NCBI GenBank assembly: GCA_017440085.1
Contig: JAFSHW010000036.1
Span: forward strand, 1-40,602
From: Clostridia bacterium
Lineage (GTDB): Bacteria > Bacillota > Clostridia > Oscillospirales > UBA644
Length of the DNA: 40,602 bases
Direction: 5' to 3'
The stretch's first letter is position 1; every line of letters starts with the position of its first letter. Of the stretch, positions 9,096 through 28,096 are shown in pieces. The notes under the pieces were generated by a model, which saw only the letters and a program-made list of their open reading frames with translations, was not told the origin of the DNA and did no database searches. The translations under genes were made by a program, and so were the position numbers.

Positions 9096-10091
9096 ATGGA
9101 TACTACGAATATTATCAGCTTCAATAAATTAGGCATTTTCGACTTGGAAATAGACAAGGTTGCAATCAGTAATATTTTCGGCACGGGCTTAGATATTTAT
9201 TGGTATGCAATTATAATAACTTTGGGTATGGTTCTTGCCATAGGCTTTTGTATGTGGCAATCCAAGAAATTTGGATTCACGTCAGACGATATTCTTGACG
9301 TTTGCCTTTGGGGTATTCCCGCTGCTCTTATTGGCGCAAGGCTTTATTTCGTAATTTTTATGTGGGACCGCTTCAACACTCTTTGGGAAATGATAAACTT
9401 CAGAAACGGTGGTCTTGCCATTTACGGTGGCGTAATAGCTGCATTCTTAACGGGCCTTATTTTTTGTTTGGTTAAAAAGAAAAACGTTTTAGCTCTTTTT
9501 GATTTGGCTTCCTTCGGGTTCTTTATCGGGCAGTCTATCGGTAGATGGGGCAATTTCGTTAACGCTGAAGCTTACGGTTCCGTTACAGATCTTCCTTGGG
9601 GAATGTCAATCAACGATGCAGCACCTGTTCACCCAACTTTTATTTATGAATCCCTTTGGAATTTAGTAGGTTTCTTGGTTGCGCTCTTTATTATCAAACG
9701 CATCAGAAAAGAAAACGGTGAAATTTTCTGCTTTTATATGGGATGGTATGGTTTGGGAAGAGCCTTCATTGAAGGTCTTCGCCAGGACAGCCTTAAAGTA
9801 TTTGGCGTTTTCAGAGTATCTCAGGTTTTAGGTCTGGTATTTTTCATCGGAGCCATCGTACTTTTCATTCTCATTAGAAAAGGCGTTATTGCAAAGATCA
9901 GCGCAAAAATTATTCAGAAAAAGATTGATAAACAAAATTCGTATACAAACGTTTTTGATGGCACTGAAAGCGATGACTCTTCAATTACTGTAAATGAATC
10001 AGACCTTTTTATGGCGTCTCTAGAGGCTCATAGAGGAAAAAATGAGGTTTCCAATCAGGTTGTTGAAAATGAAGAGGAAAAAGAAGATTGA
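9096..10091 (+). CDS. lgt: Prolipoprotein diacylglyceryl transferase
   Basis: IYWYA, IGARLYFV, GGLAIYGG, GQSIGRWGNFVN, HPTFIYES motifs; multi-pass membrane protein. Confidence 0.96.
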   Translation: MDTTNIISFNKLGIFDLEIDKVAISNIFGTGLDIYWYAIIITLGMVLAIGFCMWQSKKFGFTSDDILDVCLWGIPAALIGARLYFVIFMWDRFNTLWEMINFRNGGLAIYGGVIAAFLTGLIFCLVKKKNVLALFDLASFGFFIGQSIGRWGNFVNAEAYGSVTDLPWGMSINDAAPVHPTFIYESLWNLVGFLVALFIIKRIRKENGEIFCFYMGWYGLGRAFIEGLRQDSLKVFGVFRVSQVLGLVFFIGAIVLFILIRKGVIAKISAKIIQKKIDKQNSYTNVFDGTESDDSSITVNESDLFMASLEAHRGKNEVSNQVVENEEEKED

Positions 10092-18424: not shown

Positions 18425-19579
18425 ATGAAAAAGACAATAAGAATTATTTCAATGGTGCTTGCTTCCGTAATGATGCTTCTTACACTTTGCTCCTGTAAGG
18501 ACTCTTCTTACGCTTGCACTGTAGACGGTGTAGAGTACCCCGTAGGGCCTTATGCTTTTTACGCTCATTACACAAGAGATAAATATCAGGCTCAGGCAGA
18601 AGCTTACGGTTCTACAGATTTTGCCGCAGATTTGGTTGCTTCTCTTGATGAGGATGGCACTAAGCTTTATGAGTATATAAATTATGAAACTCAGTCAAGT
18701 TATCTTTCCCATCTTATTGTAAGCTTAAAGTTTGACCAGTTCGGTCTTGAACTTACTGCTGACCAGAAAAAGGCTATGGAAGAAGCAGTACAGGCTAATT
18801 GGATTGATGAATTTGGAGAAGAGGGCTTTACTGATATTTGCAGAACTCTCGGCATTACAGCTGCTGAATTCAAAGAAATGGTTGGCGTTTCTTATAAATA
18901 TGAAGCTTTGACCAATTATCTTTTCGGTGAAGGCGGTATTTACGAAATCACGGAAGATGAGCTTAGAGAAAATTATAATGAAAACTATAGCCGTTTCCGC
19001 TATATTATCGTATCAAAAATAGACACAGAAACGAATAAAGCTTTACCCACAGACGAACTTATTGCGAAAAAGGGTATTGTAGATACTGCTTACGCAGAAG
19101 CTCTTGCCGGTGCTGATTTCGGGGATTTGATTGCTGCATACTCTGAAGATTATATGACTATCTCCGACGATATGACGGACGAAGAAAAATCTACTTACGA
19201 AGCAAGAAATAAATCTGCTCGTGAAGACGGCATTGTTACGGATAAAAACGGCATTTTTGATTACCTTTTCTACTATTATTACAATCAAACTTTGGATTCC
19301 CAGATTGTTGATAAAGCATTTTCAATGAATGACGGCGATATTGCTTTGATAGAGATTGATTCTTCTTTCTGGGTTATTCAGAAAATGGATAAAAACGAAA
19401 AGGCAGATTACTTCGAATCTAAAAAAGACCTTATTTACAGCACAATCTCCTCACCCCTTCTTGATGAAGAATTTGCAAAATGGGAAAAGGAATTTTCTAT
19501 CGTAATGAACGAATCTGTGGTAAGCAAATATGACCCCAGAAAAATCGGTCCCCTTTTCTACGTTAAATCAGGCTCTTAA
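18425..19579 (+). CDS. PrsA/SurA-like foldase lipoprotein (parvulin-type domain, divergent)
   Basis: Signal peptide with lipobox-like LCSC; TVDG start of chaperone domain; parvulin-like GADFGDLIAAYSED and AFSMNDGDI; position after mfd is typical for Clostridia. Confidence 0.72.
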   Translation: MKKTIRIISMVLASVMMLLTLCSCKDSSYACTVDGVEYPVGPYAFYAHYTRDKYQAQAEAYGSTDFAADLVASLDEDGTKLYEYINYETQSSYLSHLIVSLKFDQFGLELTADQKKAMEEAVQANWIDEFGEEGFTDICRTLGITAAEFKEMVGVSYKYEALTNYLFGEGGIYEITEDELRENYNENYSRFRYIIVSKIDTETNKALPTDELIAKKGIVDTAYAEALAGADFGDLIAAYSEDYMTISDDMTDEEKSTYEARNKSAREDGIVTDKNGIFDYLFYYYYNQTLDSQIVDKAFSMNDGDIALIEIDSSFWVIQKMDKNEKADYFESKKDLIYSTISSPLLDEEFAKWEKEFSIVMNESVVSKYDPRKIGPLFYVKSGS

Positions 19580-19635: not shown

Positions 19636-20019
19636 TTAACCGATAATATCGGATATTTTTTTCGTCACGTAGACATTTTGCCCTGCATTTAGCAAGATTT
19701 CTGCGTTTCTATTTTCAATATTGCTTTCGCACAGTTTTTTCATGAATTGGAAAGAAGGAACGTCAATTTCATAGCTTTTCCACATGCAAACAATTTTTTT
19801 CACAGCACTATCTTTTAAATTCATAACACTTGAACTTATTTGAACGTTAAGATTTTCGATAGAATCGGAATTTATATGGAACGTCACGTTTTCTCCTTCT
19901 GTCATTCTCAAAACTAAACACTGGTGAAATTCGAGGCTCTGTTGATTGAAGTTTTCAAAGTATACTTTTGCAAGAGAAAGCATTTCGTTAAACGTTGCTT
20001 CAATTTCAATGTTGTTCAT
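19636..20019 (-). CDS. Hypothetical protein, probable cytidine-deaminase fold lacking Zn ligands
   Basis: 127 aa, SD AAGGAG; C-terminal pattern VKKIVCMW..DVPSFQFMKKLCESNIENRNAEILL..KKISDII parallels small CDA-family proteins. Gene likely real; fold is inferred. Confidence 0.65.
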   Translation of the reverse strand: MNNIEIEATFNEMLSLAKVYFENFNQQSLEFHQCLVLRMTEGENVTFHINSDSIENLNVQISSSVMNLKDSAVKKIVCMWKSYEIDVPSFQFMKKLCESNIENRNAEILLNAGQNVYVTKKISDIIG

Positions 20020-20074: not shown

Positions 20075-21289
20075 TTAGTGTGTTGGATCTTTTGTGAACT
20101 GAATGGGAGTTACGCTTTCGTCCAATGCCTTTAAAGTGTAACCTTTATCAATAAGACCTTCGATAATTTCGGGGAGAGCTTCAACAGTGGTTCTCTTGTA
20201 TCTGTAACCCAAATCGTGCACAAGAATAATTGCAGTATTTGAGGTCGCGCCGTTAAGAACGTTTCTGACCAGAACGTCTTTTGGTACGTTGTGTCCGTCT
20301 CCGTCGGGGTCATTCTTCGGGCTGGTATCTCCGCTGTCAATATTCCAGTCGTAGTATTCGTAACCTAAATCGTGAATAAGCTCGTGGGGAGCAGTTCCCA
20401 ATTTTCTTACGTAGCTTGCATTTGACCCACCGGGAAAGCGGAACAATGTCATTTCATAACCGGTGAGTTCTTTAATGCTGTTGTGTATGGAAGTAACTTC
20501 CTTTTCAAAGCTTTCAATAGAACCGTAAACGCTGTCAAAATCGTGGGTGTTTGTGTGATTTCCCAAGGTATGCCCCTCGTCAATTATACGCTGGTAAATT
20601 TCTTTGTAACCTGTAATTTTCTTATAAGCAAAGTTTACGAAGAAAGTTGCTTTAACGTCGTACTTCTTCAAAATATCAAGAATATCGTTGGTAGCGTTTG
20701 AAATTCCGTCGTCAAAGGTAAGGTACGCATATTTGCCAGTATCTTCTGGGTTTTGAACTTCTTCTTGAGGGTTATCCTCAGGTTCTTCACCGGAAATCTG
20801 AGCTTTCAAATCATTTATCTGAGATTCAAGCTTTGAAATATTGTTGTTCAAAGTTTTTATCTTGGAATTAAGATTCGAAATCGTCTTATCCTTTTCTGCA
20901 ATCTGCTTTTGAAGGTCCTCAATGCTTTCTCCGCTGCCTGAAAGGTCATTTTTTAAGGTCTCAAGCTCTTGTGTAAGCTGAGCATTTGCAGCTGCAAGAT
21001 TTTCGCGTTCTTGTTTTAAGGAATCTCTTTCCGTTGAAAGGATTTGAAGCTTTGCGGAAAGCTCGTCTGCTGTCAGTTGAACGGTTTGAAGCTGATTTTT
21101 CGTTTGAGAAACCTCTTCGGTTAAATCGTCAATTTTTCCGTTCATATTTAAAATAGATATTCCCGCAACTACGCAAACCGTAAGGAGGATTGCACTTACT
21201 GCAACCATTGCTCCTAACCAGATTTTCATAGATTTATATTTTCTTCTTTTGCGGTTCTTTTTTTCAATGAGTTCTTCGTTTTCAATCAT
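20075..21289 (-). CDS. Membrane-anchored polysaccharide/peptidoglycan deacetylase (CE4/NodB) with coiled-coil stalk
   Basis: Basic N-terminus, TM helix, long heptad-rich region, then TFDDG, GNHTNTH, FRFPGG, DWNIDSGD, ILVHD; starts 2 bp after the proS stop. Confidence 0.9.
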   Translation of the reverse strand: MIENEELIEKKNRKRRKYKSMKIWLGAMVAVSAILLTVCVVAGISILNMNGKIDDLTEEVSQTKNQLQTVQLTADELSAKLQILSTERDSLKQERENLAAANAQLTQELETLKNDLSGSGESIEDLQKQIAEKDKTISNLNSKIKTLNNNISKLESQINDLKAQISGEEPEDNPQEEVQNPEDTGKYAYLTFDDGISNATNDILDILKKYDVKATFFVNFAYKKITGYKEIYQRIIDEGHTLGNHTNTHDFDSVYGSIESFEKEVTSIHNSIKELTGYEMTLFRFPGGSNASYVRKLGTAPHELIHDLGYEYYDWNIDSGDTSPKNDPDGDGHNVPKDVLVRNVLNGATSNTAIILVHDLGYRYKRTTVEALPEIIEGLIDKGYTLKALDESVTPIQFTKDPTH

Positions 21290-22734: not shown

Positions 22735-22780
22735 ATTGTATCATCCTTTGTTTTTTATTTGTAAAAATACCTTATATAAT

Positions 22781-22809
22781 ATTATAATACATATTTGTTA
22801 CATTGTCAA
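22781..22809 (-). promoter_or_regulatory. Sigma-A promoter for proS
   Basis: Minus strand TTGACA-17 bp-TATAAT, perfect consensus. Confidence 0.82.
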
Positions 22810-22837
22810 TGGTAAAATATAATACATATTTGTTACA
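22783..22837. repeat. Perfect 20-bp direct repeat, 35-bp period
   Basis: TATAATACATATTTGTTACA at 22783-22802 and 22818-22837; its first 12 bp recur at 22921-22932. Confidence 0.85.
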
Positions 22838-22897: not shown

Positions 22898-22926
22898 TTG
22901 CTTTGGTGGTAATTTTCTGATATAAT
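22898..22926 (+). promoter_or_regulatory. Sigma-A promoter for the GH2-like lipoprotein
   Basis: TTGCTT-17 bp-TATAAT with TGa extension. Confidence 0.7.
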
Positions 22927-22968
22927 ACATATGCAACACTAAAAATATATTTATTGGAGGTTTTTTTA

Positions 22969-25900
22969 ATGAATAAGCGCCTTAAAATAGTGCTTTGCAC
23001 CGGGCTTCTTATCGTGATGTTGCTTTCTGTTGCAGCGTGCGGTAAAGTGACCGGCCTTGTTGAAACCTATGACGAGTGGAAAACAGACGTTGCTTCCAGA
23101 AATAAAGAAGCGGCATCCTCTATCCTCGTGTCATATGATGATTTAAATACTGCGGCTTCCGCGGATATTACAAAATCTTCTTATTACCTTTCTTTGAACG
23201 GTACTTGGGATTTTGCATATACTCAGAATGCTGCAAGTGTTCCCGCAGACTTTATGAAACTTGATTTCGTATACCCCGATCCTAATACGGCATCCGTTTC
23301 AGGTAAGACAGAAATTCTTTATTGGGATAAGATTAACGTTCCCGGCACTTTTGAAATGCAGGGCTACGGTAACCCCGTATATCTTGAATCCGCTTACGCT
23401 TGGAGTTCAGAAATCAGACCTACTAAAGTTCCTGAAACTGAAAACCCCATCGGTCTTTACAGAACAACTGTTTCAATCCCCGAAAATTGGGATGGCAGAG
23501 AGGTTTACATTACTCTTGACGGTGTATCTTCCGCTTGCTACGTTTATGTAAACGGTGAAATGGTTGGCTACGGTCAGGATACTTATTCTTCCAAGACCTT
23601 TAGAATTACTGATTTCGTTAAAGCCGGTGAAGAAGCTCTCGTTGCTGTTAAAGTATTCAAATACAGCTACGCTTCTTGGATTGAAGCTCAGGATGTTATC
23701 CGATTCGGTGGTATTTTTGATGATGTATATCTTTCATCTTCACCCAAGGTTTCAATTAAGGATATTTCCATTGACTCCGGTCTTGACAGTGAATTTGTAA
23801 ATGCAACAATGCTCGTAAACGTTGACGTTGTTTCTTACGTTGAATCCAACGACGGTTACAGCCTTGAAATTCAGGTTCTCGACCAGGAAGGTAAGCCCTT
23901 TATTGCAGCTCGTAAGCTCGGTAGCTCTGTAACCTTCAAAGATACTAAAGATGCCGGCTCCAACTACTTTAAAGCAGCTTCCGGCGGCCGTGTTTCTGCT
24001 GAAGCTCCTATTAAATGGTCTGCAGAAAACCCTTACCTTTACACAGCAGTAATTACTCTTAAAAATGCTGACGGCGAAGCAGTGGACGTTAAAAGTGTTC
24101 GCTTCGGATACTGTAAAGCAGGCTATGCCGTAGACGATGAAGGTAACCAGTCTTTCACTATGAACGGTGAAAAAGTTAAACTTTACGGTGTTGTTTACAA
24201 TGAATTCAACGCTGCAACAGGTTCTTACGTTCCTTACGAACAGAAGGTTGAAGACGTTAAAGCTCTTAAAGCTATGAACGTTAACGCAGTTCGTTCTCCC
24301 GGCGTTCCTTTCAGTTCTGAATTTATTGCTCTTTGCGATGAATACGGTATTTACGTAGTTTCCGATATTAACCTTGAATCTGAACCTTATTCAGCTAAAG
24401 GTGACGCTACGATTCCCGGTAATCAGACAATTTGGCAGAACATTCTCGTTGATAGACTTTACAATGTTGTAGAAAGAGATAAGAATGCTCCTTCCGTAAT
24501 TATGTGGGGTCTTGGTAACGAATCCGGTCAGGGCTCAAGCTTTAAATCACTCAGAAGCGTTCTTCAGGGTCTTGATAAGAGACTTATCGTTTATGATGGA
24601 GATACTCAGTACTCCGACCTTGTTGTTGCAAACGATTGGGATTTCTCAAAACTTAATGAAGTTCTTAACGATACTGAAAATAAGAAGCCCGTTCTTCTCG
24701 AATCCTTCGATATAGGTCTTCTTAACGGCGGCGGTAATATTTCTTCTTTGGTATCTCTTATCGATTCTTCCGATAAGGTTCAGGGCGGCTTCTTCAGCTA
24801 TTTCATTGATAAAGCTCTTTACTGGCCCAAGGATTCTGCTAATGCAGCTACAATCCTCAAAGAAAAACCTTACGCAACAAACTCTGCTGAATACCAGCTT
24901 ACATACTCAGGCAGCTGGGGTGAATCCTTGTCTGACTCCTATAAGGGTCTTACAGGTCTTCTCACCGCTAACAGAACGTGGCAGCCTGAAGCTTATGAAT
25001 TTAAAAACGTATTCTCTCCCATTGCAGTATCTGCGGTTGACGTGAAGAACGGTAAGTTCTCTGTAACCAACAGACTTAACTTTACAGCATTTGAAGATGC
25101 TTATGAGGTAATTTGGGAAGTATATAAAGAAGCAGAATTGGTTAAATCCGGTAAAGTTGAAGGCCTTTCAATTCTTCCCGGCGAATCTGCTGAATTTACA
25201 GTTGACTACGGCACTTTGGCAGCAAACGTTGATTACTTTGTTGATATCAGGGTCGTAACTCTCAATGAAACTAAATGGAATGACCTTACAGACGGCGTAG
25301 TTGCTTCTTGGCAGTACGATATTACAGGTTATGAAGCGCTTCCTCTTACAGGCGGCGAAGAAACTGACTTCGGCGATGCTCTTGAAGTAGAAATTATTGA
25401 AAAACCCGAAGTTGTTACAACTGTTCTTGATATTGCTAAGGGCTACATCTACGTTTCCAATAATTTCTCCGAAAATCTCGGCGACATTTTTGATTGCACA
25501 TTCGAACTTATCGAAACAAACAACTTCTGGAAGAAGCCTCGTCCTGTAGTTATTTCTTCCGGCACAGTAGACCTTGACATTCCTGCATATTCTCAGGACG
25601 TTAAAGTTCAGTTGGTTTACGATAACGAGCAGAAAGCGGTTGAAGGCGGCGATTACCTTGTAAAGGTTAAATTCGTAGCTAAGAAAGCTCTTGGCGACAT
25701 TCCCGCAGGATACACTTTCGTTTGGAACTTTGACGATTCTACTCTTGGCGCACCCATTCCCTTTGAAGTTGATAAGTCCAGAACTCCCGTTCAGGATAAA
25801 AATGAAGACGGTTCACCCAAAATCGACGGTAAAGGCAATCCCATTATGATTGGCGGTGACGTTGAACCTGAAACTGTTCCCGAAGTTGACGTTAACGATA

Positions 25901-27984
25901 GCGCACTTTCCGAACAGGAAGATTATGAACCTTACATTCTCATTAAGAATGACCGAGTAGAAATCATTATCGATAGCAAAATGGGTACTATCCTAAAGTT
26001 CGCTATTGACGGTGAAAACGTATTTGCAAATTCCGCTGCAAACTCCAGCCCCGAATTTGTTCTTTACAGAAATCCCACCGGCGGAGACCTTCTTTCTGAC
26101 GTAACATCTAAAGAAAATTCCGATATTATTTCTCTCAGCAGAAACGGTGATACTTACCACAAGCTTATAGATGCTGTTAAAGTAAATCAGATTTCTGAAA
26201 ACCATTACCAAGTTGCTCTTAATTACGCACTGGTTACTTACGATTATGAGCTCTTCTCTTCTGTAAGCGCAAACGCTAACCTCGCTGTAACATACGATAT
26301 CTTCGGCAACGGTGAAATCGTTATCAGCTACGCTTATGACCCCACAGTTCTTACAGGTATTCCTTCTGAAATCGCAAATATCGTTGTATTTGATAAGGGA
26401 TATGATACTTTCTCTTGGTACGGCAGAGGCCTTGGCGAAAGCTATTCTGACAGACTTGCAGATACAAGAGTAAGCATTTATGAAAACGTTGATGTTTCAG
26501 AACTTATTTCTACCAGATACGTTTATAACGCAGGTACAGGCGACAGAAGTGATGTAAGATGGGTAAAACTTGCAGGCGAAGAAAAGACTCCCGTTCTTAT
26601 TTCCAGCACTTCCGGCAACTTTGCATTTAATGCAAGCTATACAAACGGACTTTCTGCTTCTGATTATGCAAGAAACGTTTCTGCAGGCGATATATTCCTC
26701 AGAATTATTGCTGAACAGAGAGGTGTTTCCGCAGGCAACGTTGTTGATGCAAACAACTACGATGCAGATAACATTATCGAACCCGGTTCTTGCGTAGAAT
26801 TCTCTTACAGAATTAAACCTCTTGCAAATAATGAAGATGAAATGGCTGCAGCTAAAACTTACATTAAAGTTGACGCTCCTTCCGTTGACAGAGCTTCTAT
26901 TGAAAGCGGCAAAGATTACTCCATTACTTCCATTGCTTCCGGTACTGAATACCTTACAGTTGCAAACGGATCAGTATCTCTTGAAGCAGGTAAGGGTAGT
27001 GACGGTCAGCTTTGGAAATTGACTGAAGATAGCTCTACAGGTTTCGATGCAATCAGACTTGAAAATGTTGCATACGACGGAATTATTTCTCCTCCTTACG
27101 CTGTATATGACGAATCCAGAACAGCTATCGACGTTGGTCTTGGCCAGTATGCAAAAGCTCGTCACTGGGCTAATTGGCAGCATATTGATGATCAGCTTAA
27201 ACCACTTTCCGTTGGTTGGGCACTCATTCCTATGAATGAAGAAATCGGTTCTCACGTAGTTCTTCAGGATCCCAAACATCTCGAAGGCAACAAACTTGCT
27301 CAGTGGGATCTTATCGAAGTTGACGCTGATGAAAACCTCTACGTAATTCAGAATAAGAAGACAGGCGATCTCTTAACTGTAATTGATGAACTTACTTACA
27401 GGAATGCAATCGTTGAAATTCTTGCTGACAGAAAGCTTAACTATGCAGGTACTATCGACTGGAACAGCTTTGCTGCTATGGATGCAACCGCATACGTAGA
27501 TAACGGTTCCGGCGGTACAAACAACTGGGCTAAGCTTGAAAAGAGCCTTACAATCTGGAACGCTCTTCCCTCTGATAGCCAGAAATGGACTTTCACTCAA
27601 GTCTCAGTAGGTGAATTTACAATCACAAATAAAGACACTGGTCTTGCTCTTACTTACGACGGTGAAGTTCTTTCCGAACAGACTGCTAACGGCAATGCTA
27701 ACCAGATTTGGGCAGTTATTGACGATAACGGTGTTTACGGCCTCGTAAACAAAGCAAACGGCGGCGCACTTACGCTCGATACATTGCGTGTTCCTCTTAC
27801 AGAAGAAGAACTTGCAGCTATCTACGTAACTGTTGAAGACGATAAATACAAGGAAATCACAGTTCTTACTGTTCAGCCTTGGGCAGGTCTTGCAACTCAG
27901 AAATGGTATATCGAATCTGATGCAGACAGAGAAATCGTTATCGAAGCAGGCGATAGCTGGTACCTTGACCCCGTTGTTGAATAA
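22969..27984 (+). CDS. Large LacZ-like (GH2) lipoprotein with C-terminal ricin-type lectin repeats; active site appears degenerate
   Basis: SD GGAGG then ATG 22969; lipobox-like VAAC; LacZ landmarks SLNGTWDF, DGVSSA.YVYVNG, WSAENPYLY, LCDEYGIYV, RDKNAPSVIMWGLGNESG, WYGRG..ESYSDR; QxW repeats (GQLW, SQKW, NQIW, TQKW) at the C-terminus. Confidence 0.9.
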   Translation: MNKRLKIVLCTGLLIVMLLSVAACGKVTGLVETYDEWKTDVASRNKEAASSILVSYDDLNTAASADITKSSYYLSLNGTWDFAYTQNAASVPADFMKLDFVYPDPNTASVSGKTEILYWDKINVPGTFEMQGYGNPVYLESAYAWSSEIRPTKVPETENPIGLYRTTVSIPENWDGREVYITLDGVSSACYVYVNGEMVGYGQDTYSSKTFRITDFVKAGEEALVAVKVFKYSYASWIEAQDVIRFGGIFDDVYLSSSPKVSIKDISIDSGLDSEFVNATMLVNVDVVSYVESNDGYSLEIQVLDQEGKPFIAARKLGSSVTFKDTKDAGSNYFKAASGGRVSAEAPIKWSAENPYLYTAVITLKNADGEAVDVKSVRFGYCKAGYAVDDEGNQSFTMNGEKVKLYGVVYNEFNAATGSYVPYEQKVEDVKALKAMNVNAVRSPGVPFSSEFIALCDEYGIYVVSDINLESEPYSAKGDATIPGNQTIWQNILVDRLYNVVERDKNAPSVIMWGLGNESGQGSSFKSLRSVLQGLDKRLIVYDGDTQYSDLVVANDWDFSKLNEVLNDTENKKPVLLESFDIGLLNGGGNISSLVSLIDSSDKVQGGFFSYFIDKALYWPKDSANAATILKEKPYATNSAEYQLTYSGSWGESLSDSYKGLTGLLTANRTWQPEAYEFKNVFSPIAVSAVDVKNGKFSVTNRLNFTAFEDAYEVIWEVYKEAELVKSGKVEGLSILPGESAEFTVDYGTLAANVDYFVDIRVVTLNETKWNDLTDGVVASWQYDITGYEALPLTGGEETDFGDALEVEIIEKPEVVTTVLDIAKGYIYVSNNFSENLGDIFDCTFELIETNNFWKKPRPVVISSGTVDLDIPAYSQDVKVQLVYDNEQKAVEGGDYLVKVKFVAKKALGDIPAGYTFVWNFDDSTLGAPIPFEVDKSRTPVQDKNEDGSPKIDGKGNPIMIGGDVEPETVPEVDVNDSALSEQEDYEPYILIKNDRVEIIIDSKMGTILKFAIDGENVFANSAANSSPEFVLYRNPTGGDLLSDVTSKENSDIISLSRNGDTYHKLIDAVKVNQISENHYQVALNYALVTYDYELFSSVSANANLAVTYDIFGNGEIVISYAYDPTVLTGIPSEIANIVVFDKGYDTFSWYGRGLGESYSDRLADTRVSIYENVDVSELISTRYVYNAGTGDRSDVRWVKLAGEEKTPVLISSTSGNFAFNASYTNGLSASDYARNVSAGDIFLRIIAEQRGVSAGNVVDANNYDADNIIEPGSCVEFSYRIKPLANNEDEMAAAKTYIKVDAPSVDRASIESGKDYSITSIASGTEYLTVANGSVSLEAGKGSDGQLWKLTEDSSTGFDAIRLENVAYDGIISPPYAVYDESRTAIDVGLGQYAKARHWANWQHIDDQLKPLSVGWALIPMNEEIGSHVVLQDPKHLEGNKLAQWDLIEVDADENLYVIQNKKTGDLLTVIDELTYRNAIVEILADRKLNYAGTIDWNSFAAMDATAYVDNGSGGTNNWAKLEKSLTIWNALPSDSQKWTFTQVSVGEFTITNKDTGLALTYDGEVLSEQTANGNANQIWAVIDDNGVYGLVNKANGGALTLDTLRVPLTEEELAAIYVTVEDDKYKEITVLTVQPWAGLATQKWYIESDADREIVIEAGDSWYLDPVVE

Positions 27985-28000
27985 TAATTTAAACTTAATA

Positions 28001-28036
28001 AGGGCATTGAGTTTTACTCAGTGCCCTCTATTTTTT
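28001..28036 (+). terminator. Intrinsic terminator
   Basis: AGGGCATTGAGT-ttt-ACTCAGTGCCCT then CTATTTTTT. Confidence 0.8.
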
Positions 28037-28096
28037 ACAGGAAATTGAAACAATGACTTCGGATATGAACAAAAAATGAAAAATCGGCTTATCCTC

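Follow-up and report, generated by a model that had tools for sequence, protein, structure and literature searches.

LacZ is among the best-studied enzymes. Glycosidase folds that bind sugars instead of cutting them are known in families GH18, GH1 and GH33, where chitinase-like lectins, Klotho and CyRPA, respectively, kept the fold after catalytic loss and put it to use in binding (accessible part of PMC7828330). Within glycoside hydrolase family 2 (GH2) itself, BgaA of Streptococcus pneumoniae is a large surface-attached protein whose C-terminal, non-catalytic carbohydrate-binding modules mediate adherence without catalysis (accessible part of PMC4161441), and a survey of GH2 architectures, in its accessible part, gives ricin B domains just as rare N-terminal additions and makes no mention of inactive members (PMC5145203). 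Here we analysed a stretch of 40,602 nucleotides, referred to below as the window (contig JAFSHW010000036.1 of the Clostridia bacterium assembly GCA_017440085.1; Oscillospirales, UBA644), in which a single gene at 22969..27984 encodes a 1,671-residue predicted lipoprotein with a complete LacZ-type body, two C-terminal lectin domains and a serine in place of the catalytic nucleophile. Judged by its residues, the product of this dead-LacZ gene is very probably not a retaining β-galactosidase, and we lean towards the view that it is a dead GH2 pseudoenzyme serving as an abundant, lipid-anchored, lectin-bearing envelope protein that binds glycans without hydrolysing them.

The likeness to LacZ-type GH2 enzymes (Escherichia coli LacZ, the Thermotoga maritima enzyme 6sd0 and the family NF052611) comprises the five domains and their order, 100 of 175 conserved positions and, in the model, the fold over its whole length. 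Unlike these enzymes, the window protein is without the nucleophile Glu, H357, H391, H418, H540, Y503, M502, W568 and W999 (E. coli numbering), and to the ordinary LacZ it adds a lipoprotein signal, an extra immunoglobulin (Ig)-like domain and two β-trefoils. BgaA, which we take to be anchored to the wall and to carry CBM71 modules, is an active enzyme, whereas the window protein combines a dead enzyme part with a predicted lipid anchor and ricin-type trefoils; as a surface-attached GH2 protein with C-terminal sugar-binding modules, BgaA is the nearest functional precedent. The nearest conceptual class is that of the GH18, GH1 and GH33 pseudoglycosidases, which differ in belonging to other families and in being mostly eukaryotic, and from which the window clade is further set apart by an old pocket that is not specially conserved. 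With the R-type (ricin B, CBM13-like) tandem lectins of the HA33/HA1 type, the protein shares two tandem trefoils, QxW motifs and its best Foldseek matches (E 5e-10), but identity is just 9-17% and the window trefoils are fused to a 1,260-residue LacZ body. A literature search, with subscription journals mostly outside its reach, found no GH2 pseudoenzyme (one query matched GH28 beetle papers only); as far as the literature was searched, this is the first pseudoglycosidase of the LacZ type.

The gene and the domains of its product are as follows.
22969..27984, + strand: coding sequence of the 1,671-residue LacZ-like lectin lipoprotein, stop codon included (open reading frame (ORF) call)
23191..23745, + strand: GH2_N jelly-roll, residues 75-259, the most conserved domain (Pfam PF02837, 102 bits)
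23749..24108, + strand: GH2 Ig-like domain 2, residues 261-380 (Pfam PF00703, 48 bits)
24145..25026, + strand: GH2 TIM barrel without catalytic machinery, residues 393-686 (Pfam PF02836, 144 bits)
25057..25284, + strand: LacZ domain 4, residues 697-772 (Pfam PF16353, 65.5 bits)
25462..25725, + strand: extra Ig-like domain, residues ~832-919, a weak second copy of LacZ domain 4 (PF16353 at E 1.7e-4, below the curated cut-off)
25948..26739, + strand: LacZ domain 5 (Bgal_small_N), residues 994-1257, W999 motif lost (Pfam PF02929, 92.5 bits)
26911..27399, + strand: first β-trefoil, residues ~1315-1477 (model with a predicted local distance difference test score (pLDDT) of 84.6, Foldseek and a weak RicinB_lectin_2 match)
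27535..27948, + strand: second β-trefoil, residues ~1523-1660, with three QxW motifs (PF14200 at 53-75 bits, model and Foldseek)

All five LacZ domains are present in order, with Pfam matches above the respective cut-offs, and the extra Ig-like domain is modelled as a β-sandwich (pLDDT 84-92). An AlphaFold2 (AF2) model of residues 61-1260 (mean pLDDT 73.5) matched the T. maritima and E. coli LacZ structures over their full length in Foldseek (E 1e-59 to 1e-54), with template modelling scores by target of 0.71-0.76 to LacZ structures. The best NCBIfam equivalog, NF052611 (Bga2A type), reached 604 bits against a cut-off of 999. In the model, the eight barrel strands end at Y410/N411/E412, S443-G445, D466, N517/E518, D543, D556/W557, E578/S579 and S610, and therefore the replaced residues sit where the active site of a TIM barrel sits. 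An earlier interpretation of this DNA made from its letters, which we call the sequence-only reading, had given 26830 as the end coordinate of its finding; the ORF runs to 27984, and the C-terminal 410 residues that were missed hold the two trefoils, which would provide the best support for the glycan-binding, adhesin or envelope role that it had proposed.

The state of the catalytic machinery was read from an alignment, A1, of E. coli K-12 LacZ, the window protein, 16 orthologues and 10 ordinary β-galactosidases. The nucleophile motif, RPLILCEYAHAMGNS in E. coli and KPVLLESFDIGLLNG in the window protein, aligns without gaps, with Ser579 at E537, Ile582 at H540 and Glu578 at C536, and a HMMER alignment to the T. 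maritima enzyme 6sd0 gave the same register, with Ser579 at the nucleophile. The end of barrel strand 7, where the nucleophile Glu stands in active enzymes, is thus occupied by Ser579. The sites concerned are listed below.
24520..24522, + strand: acid/base Glu518 (E. coli E461), WSLGNESG in E. coli and WGLGNESG in the window protein (A1)
24700..24705, + strand: Glu578-Ser579 (E. coli C536-E537 positions), Ser579 codon at 24703-24705 (A1 and HMMER)
H357 motif: GVNRHE in E. coli, GVVYNE in the window protein (A1)
H391 motif: RCSHYP in E. coli, RSPGVP in the window protein (A1)
H418 motif: NIETHG in E. coli, NLESEP in the window protein (A1)
M502/Y503 motif: CPMY in E. coli, VAND in the window protein (A1)
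W568 motif: GGFVWDW in E. coli, GGFFSYF in the window protein (A1)
W999 motif: GGDDSW in E. coli, SAGNVV in the window protein (A1)

We take H357, H391, H540, Y503, M502, W568 and W999 to be the substrate and transition-state residues of LacZ and H418 to be a metal ligand; all eight are replaced in the window protein and throughout the 17 clade rows of A1. More specifically, R356, H357, H391, H418, M502, Y503, E537, H540 and W568 are absent from 17/17 clade proteins, and the nine are almost fully retained in E. coli LacZ and in the 10 ordinary enzymes. The sequence-only reading had described the acid/base motif as intact, had placed Ser at E537 and Ile at H540 without gaps and had listed the H357, H391, H418, M502/Y503, W568 and W999 motifs as replaced; each of these statements agrees with A1, the multiple alignment on LacZ being a check that it had itself suggested.

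The loss of the nucleophile extends over a whole clade. A word-index search yielded 23 proteins at 36-100% identity, 22 of them full length (1,623-1,711 residues) and one a 1,391-residue partial copy identical to the window protein, followed by ordinary enzymes of ~1,000 residues at ~30% identity. In the source annotations, clade members appear just as "RICIN domain-containing protein" or "DUF4981 domain-containing protein". Search matches, 50% library representatives and genes from relatives' genomes were pooled into 48 distinct clade sequences, many of which are close kin and so not independent. The E537 position holds S in 29, D in 6, N in 5, T in 3, F in 2 and Y, M and E in 1 each, that is, the nucleophile Glu is absent in 47/48. 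At the E461 position (E 31, Q 9, D 3, N 3, K 1, H 1), the acid/base Glu, kept in the window protein, is replaced in 17 of the 48, and the C536 position is Q in 26, E in 17, H in 2, T in 2 and V in 1. Among the 48, the two catalytic positions are never both Glu, and in a single sequence they are both acidic. The sequence-only reading had cautioned that the Glu adjacent to the Ser might substitute for the nucleophile; the Glu578 position is Gln in 26/48 and His, Thr or Val in others, and since neither the adjacent Glu nor the acid/base is conserved, that caveat is answered. From the residues across the clade, we infer that the dead-LacZ protein would not hydrolyse galactosides, in line with the non-hydrolytic role earlier ascribed to it. 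Outside the clade, both catalytic Glu are kept by 97/97 relatives among the matches listed and by 139 of the best 150 library representatives, the rest being 9 clade members, 1 other dead protein and 1 truncated sequence. The same genome also encodes a 1,041-residue LacZ paralogue, which lacks a signal peptide and in which the nine residues checked are all intact.

The sole clade sequence with Glu at the nucleophile position is L029 (G021:C74), an orthologue of the window gene with Gln as acid/base and with Ser, Tyr and Asn at positions 416, 418 and 503; its Glu could be a retention or a reversal. Outside the clade, P0152 (1,073 residues, ordinary length, with a signal peptide) is a second, independent dead LacZ-type protein, with Q, G, H, A, Y and G at positions 357, 391, 503, 537, 540 and 568 and with E416, H418 and E461 kept; by comparison with it, the GH2 nucleophile may have been lost on more than one occasion. 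P0123 (3,246 residues) is a secreted giant comprising two complete LacZ bodies, both with intact NRHD, SHYP and CEYAHAM motifs.

Full-length, stop-free orthologues were present in 24/24 genomes of the window's family, spanning 10 genera (a few cut by contig ends), and in 0/16 genomes from other families of the order covered by the same search. An order-wide draw gave the same pattern, with orthologues in 14/14 genomes of the family and in 0/236 genomes of 29 other families (E <= 1e-120). All clade MAG (metagenome-assembled genome) records consulted come from gut or rumen. In a quick maximum-likelihood tree of 36 proteins, the 12 dead sequences lie on one side of a branch with a Shimodaira-Hasegawa-like approximate likelihood ratio test (SH-aLRT) support of 100, so that one change of state suffices; this is also the longest internal branch (0.81 changes per column). 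The ratio of nonsynonymous to synonymous substitution rates (dN/dS, Nei-Gojobori), determined for ten orthologue pairs with dS near saturation in several, was 0.035-0.106 for the TIM barrel, 0.002-0.113 for GH2_N and 0.058-0.335 for the trefoils, the fastest-evolving part of the protein; in the three least saturated pairs (whole-gene dS 0.64-0.74), the barrel value was 0.077-0.094. The barrel and GH2_N are likewise the best-conserved domains and the trefoils the least, with identities of 84% versus 62% to the closest relative and ~50% versus 28% to the farthest. The dead-LacZ gene is under purifying selection and is inherited vertically across the family. The protein, a homologue of an enzyme that has lost its catalytic residues and is retained by purifying selection, is thus by its sequence a pseudoenzyme, predicted to be inactive.

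Of the 175 positions conserved in at least 10 of the 11 active enzymes of A1, 100 are kept in at least 15 of the 17 clade members and 75 are changed. The 16 positions that we take to form the galactose pocket of LacZ have a conservation of 0.94 in the active enzymes, against a background of 0.66 (a level reached by 0/10,000 random sets); in the clade, their conservation is 0.64 against a background of 0.72, with 7% of random sets as low. As judged from these alignments, the galactose pocket is now without special constraint in the clade; because the old active-site positions are not specially conserved, binding via the old galactose pocket is not supported. A further 139 positions are conserved specifically in the clade, and some of them lie together at the top of the barrel (Y410, S443-P444-G445, D466, P473-Y474, P483-G484, D543 and W557). 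By this pattern of residues, the old site appears re-lined rather than simply eroded.

The C-terminal part has the features of an R-type lectin. The RicinB_lectin_2 profile PF14200 matches at 65-75 bits, against a cut-off of 25.6, and the model of the C-terminal part (pLDDT 84.6) folds into two β-trefoils, for which the best Foldseek matches are tandem-trefoil sugar binders, namely the HA33/HA1 haemagglutinin, CEL-III and ricin-type B chains. The β-trefoil fold is accompanied by QxW repeats, which are conserved in the clade. In 5/5 family genomes scanned, the dead-LacZ gene is the sole match to RicinB_lectin_2; a trefoil serving as a shared anchoring module, which we also considered, is ruled out by this confinement. 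The extreme C-terminus (27931-27981, residues ~1655-1671) carries a clade-conserved I-x-(I/V)-E-A-G-x-x-W-(F/Y) motif after the last trefoil.

Codon use was examined as a proxy for expression by principal-component analysis of 487 ORFs. Axis 1, which accounts for 22% of the variance and is uncorrelated with GC content at third codon positions (GC3), was chosen because tblastn with 22 E. coli ribosomal-protein and elongation-factor genes retrieved just rpsD and one EF-G from this 62%-complete MAG. The dead-LacZ gene ranks 14/487 at the negative end of the axis, and guaB stands at the 9th percentile. Of 20 other ORFs at that end scanned against Pfam, 18 had matches, among them GAPDH, a solute-binding lipoprotein, aconitase, acetate kinase, FtsZ, trigger factor, EF-G and aminoacyl-tRNA synthetases; rpsD, outside that scan, falls at the same end. 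Distance from the genome mean, tried as another codon measure, placed the gene at the 70th percentile and was uninformative. On codon bias, then, the dead-LacZ gene is probably well expressed. Elsewhere in the same genome, a 1,396-residue ORF (G000:C38:7607-11794) with no Pfam match at E <= 1e-8 ranks third of 487 on this expression-linked axis, and its product may be another abundant giant protein.

Signals in and around the gene, together with a neighbouring deacetylase gene, are listed below.
22898..22926, + strand: promoter-like site, TTGCTT, 17 nt and an extended -10 TGaTATAAT at 22918-22926 (sequence reading)
22956..22960, + strand: Shine-Dalgarno sequence GGAGG, 8 nt 5' of the ATG (sequence reading)
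22969..23040, + strand: lipoprotein signal peptide with the lipobox V-A-A-C, Cys24 codon at 23038-23040 (translation)
28001..28037, + strand: intrinsic terminator, a 12-bp stem (28001-28027) followed by a T run (terminator scan)
20075-21289, - strand: CE4 polysaccharide deacetylase with a cytoplasmic tail, one transmembrane (TM) helix, a ~130-residue coiled coil and then the catalytic domain

The ORF is open from 22954, and the ATG at 22969, which gives 1,671 residues, encodes the same start Met as in the orthologues. The extended -10 lies ~40 nt 5' of the ATG; a consensus promoter scan did not list this site, whose -35 hexamer TTGCTT matches 3/6, and returned further + strand candidates at 22759-22788 and 22795-22823. 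The N-terminus of the protein reads MNKRLKIVLCTGLLIVMLLSVAAC, and the lipobox Cys recurs in the orthologues inspected, with ~12 residues between Cys24 and the start of the LacZ-like body. The window itself contains lgt (9096-10091); lspA is present in 2/2 near-complete relatives and was not found in the window's own MAG, which is 62%-complete. A lipobox Cys signal together with Lgt and LspA characterises bacterial lipoproteins, and lipidation of Cys24 is accordingly predicted. Over the gene, contigs from two runs of one study show 0 differences; in the contigs of two further studies, which span both key codons, these are unchanged and no indels occur. The gene sequence is no assembly error. 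The flanking genes in the window are typA, pth, mfd, the CE4 deacetylase, proS, guaB, ABC exporters and lgt, with no sugar transporter or sugar regulator within the 40,602 nt. Rfam detected no riboswitch or T-box between proS and the dead-LacZ gene, and its matches anywhere in the window were two 5S rRNAs and two tRNAs only. In 10 of the 11 loci with a readable upstream neighbour, proS is divergent and directly upstream, and downstream genes differ; the CE4 deacetylase is beside proS or the dead-LacZ gene in 6/12 fetched loci, from three genera, as well as in the window. The sequence-only reading had portrayed an intact 5-kb ORF with its own promoter, Shine-Dalgarno sequence and terminator, maintained, probably well expressed, similar to guaB in codon choice and flanked by no sugar transporter or regulator. 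This portrait is borne out by the signals above, by the codon axis, on which bias is what speaks for expression, by the flanks, and by the presence of the gene in every family genome searched together with the low barrel dN/dS; the dN/dS analysis among orthologues that it had suggested gave low values in every domain.

How can these features be combined? In the reading that we favour, the nucleophile, the transition-state histidines and the aromatic sugar platform would have been lost once, in the ancestor of one uncultured family of gut Clostridia, after which the complete LacZ-type body would have been kept as an abundant, lipid-anchored protein of the cell envelope. The protein would be held at the outer face of the membrane, its LacZ body ~12 residues from Cys24 and its pair of lectin domains farthest from the anchor, with the ricin-type trefoils acting as glycan-binding heads and the conserved LacZ body, re-lined at the barrel top with clade-specific residues, as a rigid scaffold. 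The ligand could be a host or dietary glycan, for which the fast-evolving trefoils and the gut or rumen origin of all clade MAG records speak, or the cell's own wall, for which the short tether and the CE4 deacetylase nearby speak. Several points weigh against this picture. The organisms are uncultured MAGs, and carbohydrate binding by the trefoils is predicted from family and fold. The window protein still has Glu518 and Glu578, plus Glu470 and Glu472 (a possible metal site), conserved carboxylates stand at barrel strand ends (E412, D466, D543, D556 and D242), and the loops around the old site have pLDDT <50 in the AF2 model. With so short a tether, the LacZ body would lie at the membrane face, as expected of an envelope protein more than of a distal adhesin. 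Pocket conservation at or below background argues, on the 16 positions assumed to form the LacZ pocket, against a conserved ligand in the old pocket; conversely, the 139 clade-specific positions include the surroundings of the old site, and therefore this region may have a specific task and not be a mere scaffold. Along this latter line, it is conceivable, though rather unlikely in our estimate, that the dead barrel forms a new clade-conserved ligand site (Y410, D466, Y474, D543, D556 and W557, with D242, E412 and N517 retained) in an abundant, family-defining envelope receptor that couples it to the lectin heads, the ligand of which might be a de-N-acetylated or otherwise modified glycan produced by the neighbouring CE4 deacetylase, or which might tether the cell to gut glycans.

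The short distance of just ~12 residues between Cys24 and the LacZ-like body would also suit an envelope organiser whose ligand is the wall polymer of the cell itself and which acts where membrane and wall meet, possibly with the membrane-anchored CE4 deacetylase as a partner. In its favour, the gene belongs to the family core in single copy, its codon bias is of the expression type, dN/dS of the body is very low and sugar-utilisation genes are absent nearby; the TM-plus-coiled-coil deacetylase adjoins either proS or the gene in the window, as it does in 6/12 loci of three genera. However, the deacetylase is swapped for unrelated genes in 5 loci, and its partial linkage may be due to common descent and nothing more. 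The trefoils, with dN/dS up to 0.34, are the fastest-evolving part, which suits an outward-facing, variable ligand better than a wall polymer that does not vary, and the ligands of their best structural matches are galactose, GalNAc or sialic acid in animal glycans. We therefore hold this organiser to be doubtful. Much less probable still is a re-wired enzyme, in which Glu578 or Asp556 (Y503 position) would work with Glu518, or a different chemistry would operate. Glu518 is kept, Glu578 adjoins Ser579, Asp or Glu occupies the Y503 position in 39/48 orthologues, and the strongly constrained barrel has clade-specific conserved residues at the C-terminal ends of its strands. Yet position 536 is Gln in 26/48, the acid/base is something other than Glu in 17/48, no sequence has two catalytic Glu and just one has two acidic residues there; the galactose-holding residues of LacZ are all gone, and NCBIfam equivalog scores fall far under their cut-offs (604 versus 999). 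In addition, the modelled strand leading to the nucleophile position comprises residues 575-578, and from strand geometry the side chain of residue 578, which precedes that position, should point away. The many once-invariant residues lost and a source MAG of 62% completeness could finally suggest a decaying relic, that is, a pseudogene in progress, or an assembly artefact. To this we assign a negligible probability: it is refuted by orthologues that are stop-free in 24/24 and 14/14 family genomes, by dN/dS well under 1 in every domain, by the expression-type codon bias and by independent contigs that are identical and free of indels, with the key codons unchanged in two other studies.

A binder derived from LacZ would have several implications. 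An entire bacterial family keeps a 5-kb dead LacZ as a core gene beside an active LacZ, predicted to be cytoplasmic, elsewhere in the genome, which would make it a clean natural example of the conversion of a bacterial enzyme into a binder; should the re-lined site indeed bind a ligand, it would be the first functional GH2 pseudoenzyme. Calls of "GH2 / beta-galactosidase" in counts of carbohydrate-active enzymes (CAZymes) from gut metagenomes would include non-enzymes. The dead-LacZ protein is also likely to be a major protein at the surface of an uncultured lineage from gut and rumen, and one that is directly expressible and testable.

Further features of the window lie away from the dead-LacZ gene. 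Between mfd and the CE4 deacetylase, there are two ORFs with no Pfam match, one encoding a 384-residue predicted lipoprotein (18425-19579; lipobox LTLCSC) and the other a 127-residue product (19636-20019). Two 5S rRNA genes in tandem (198-314 and 385-501) stand at the window's start, and two tRNAs (512-583 and 736-809) come after them.

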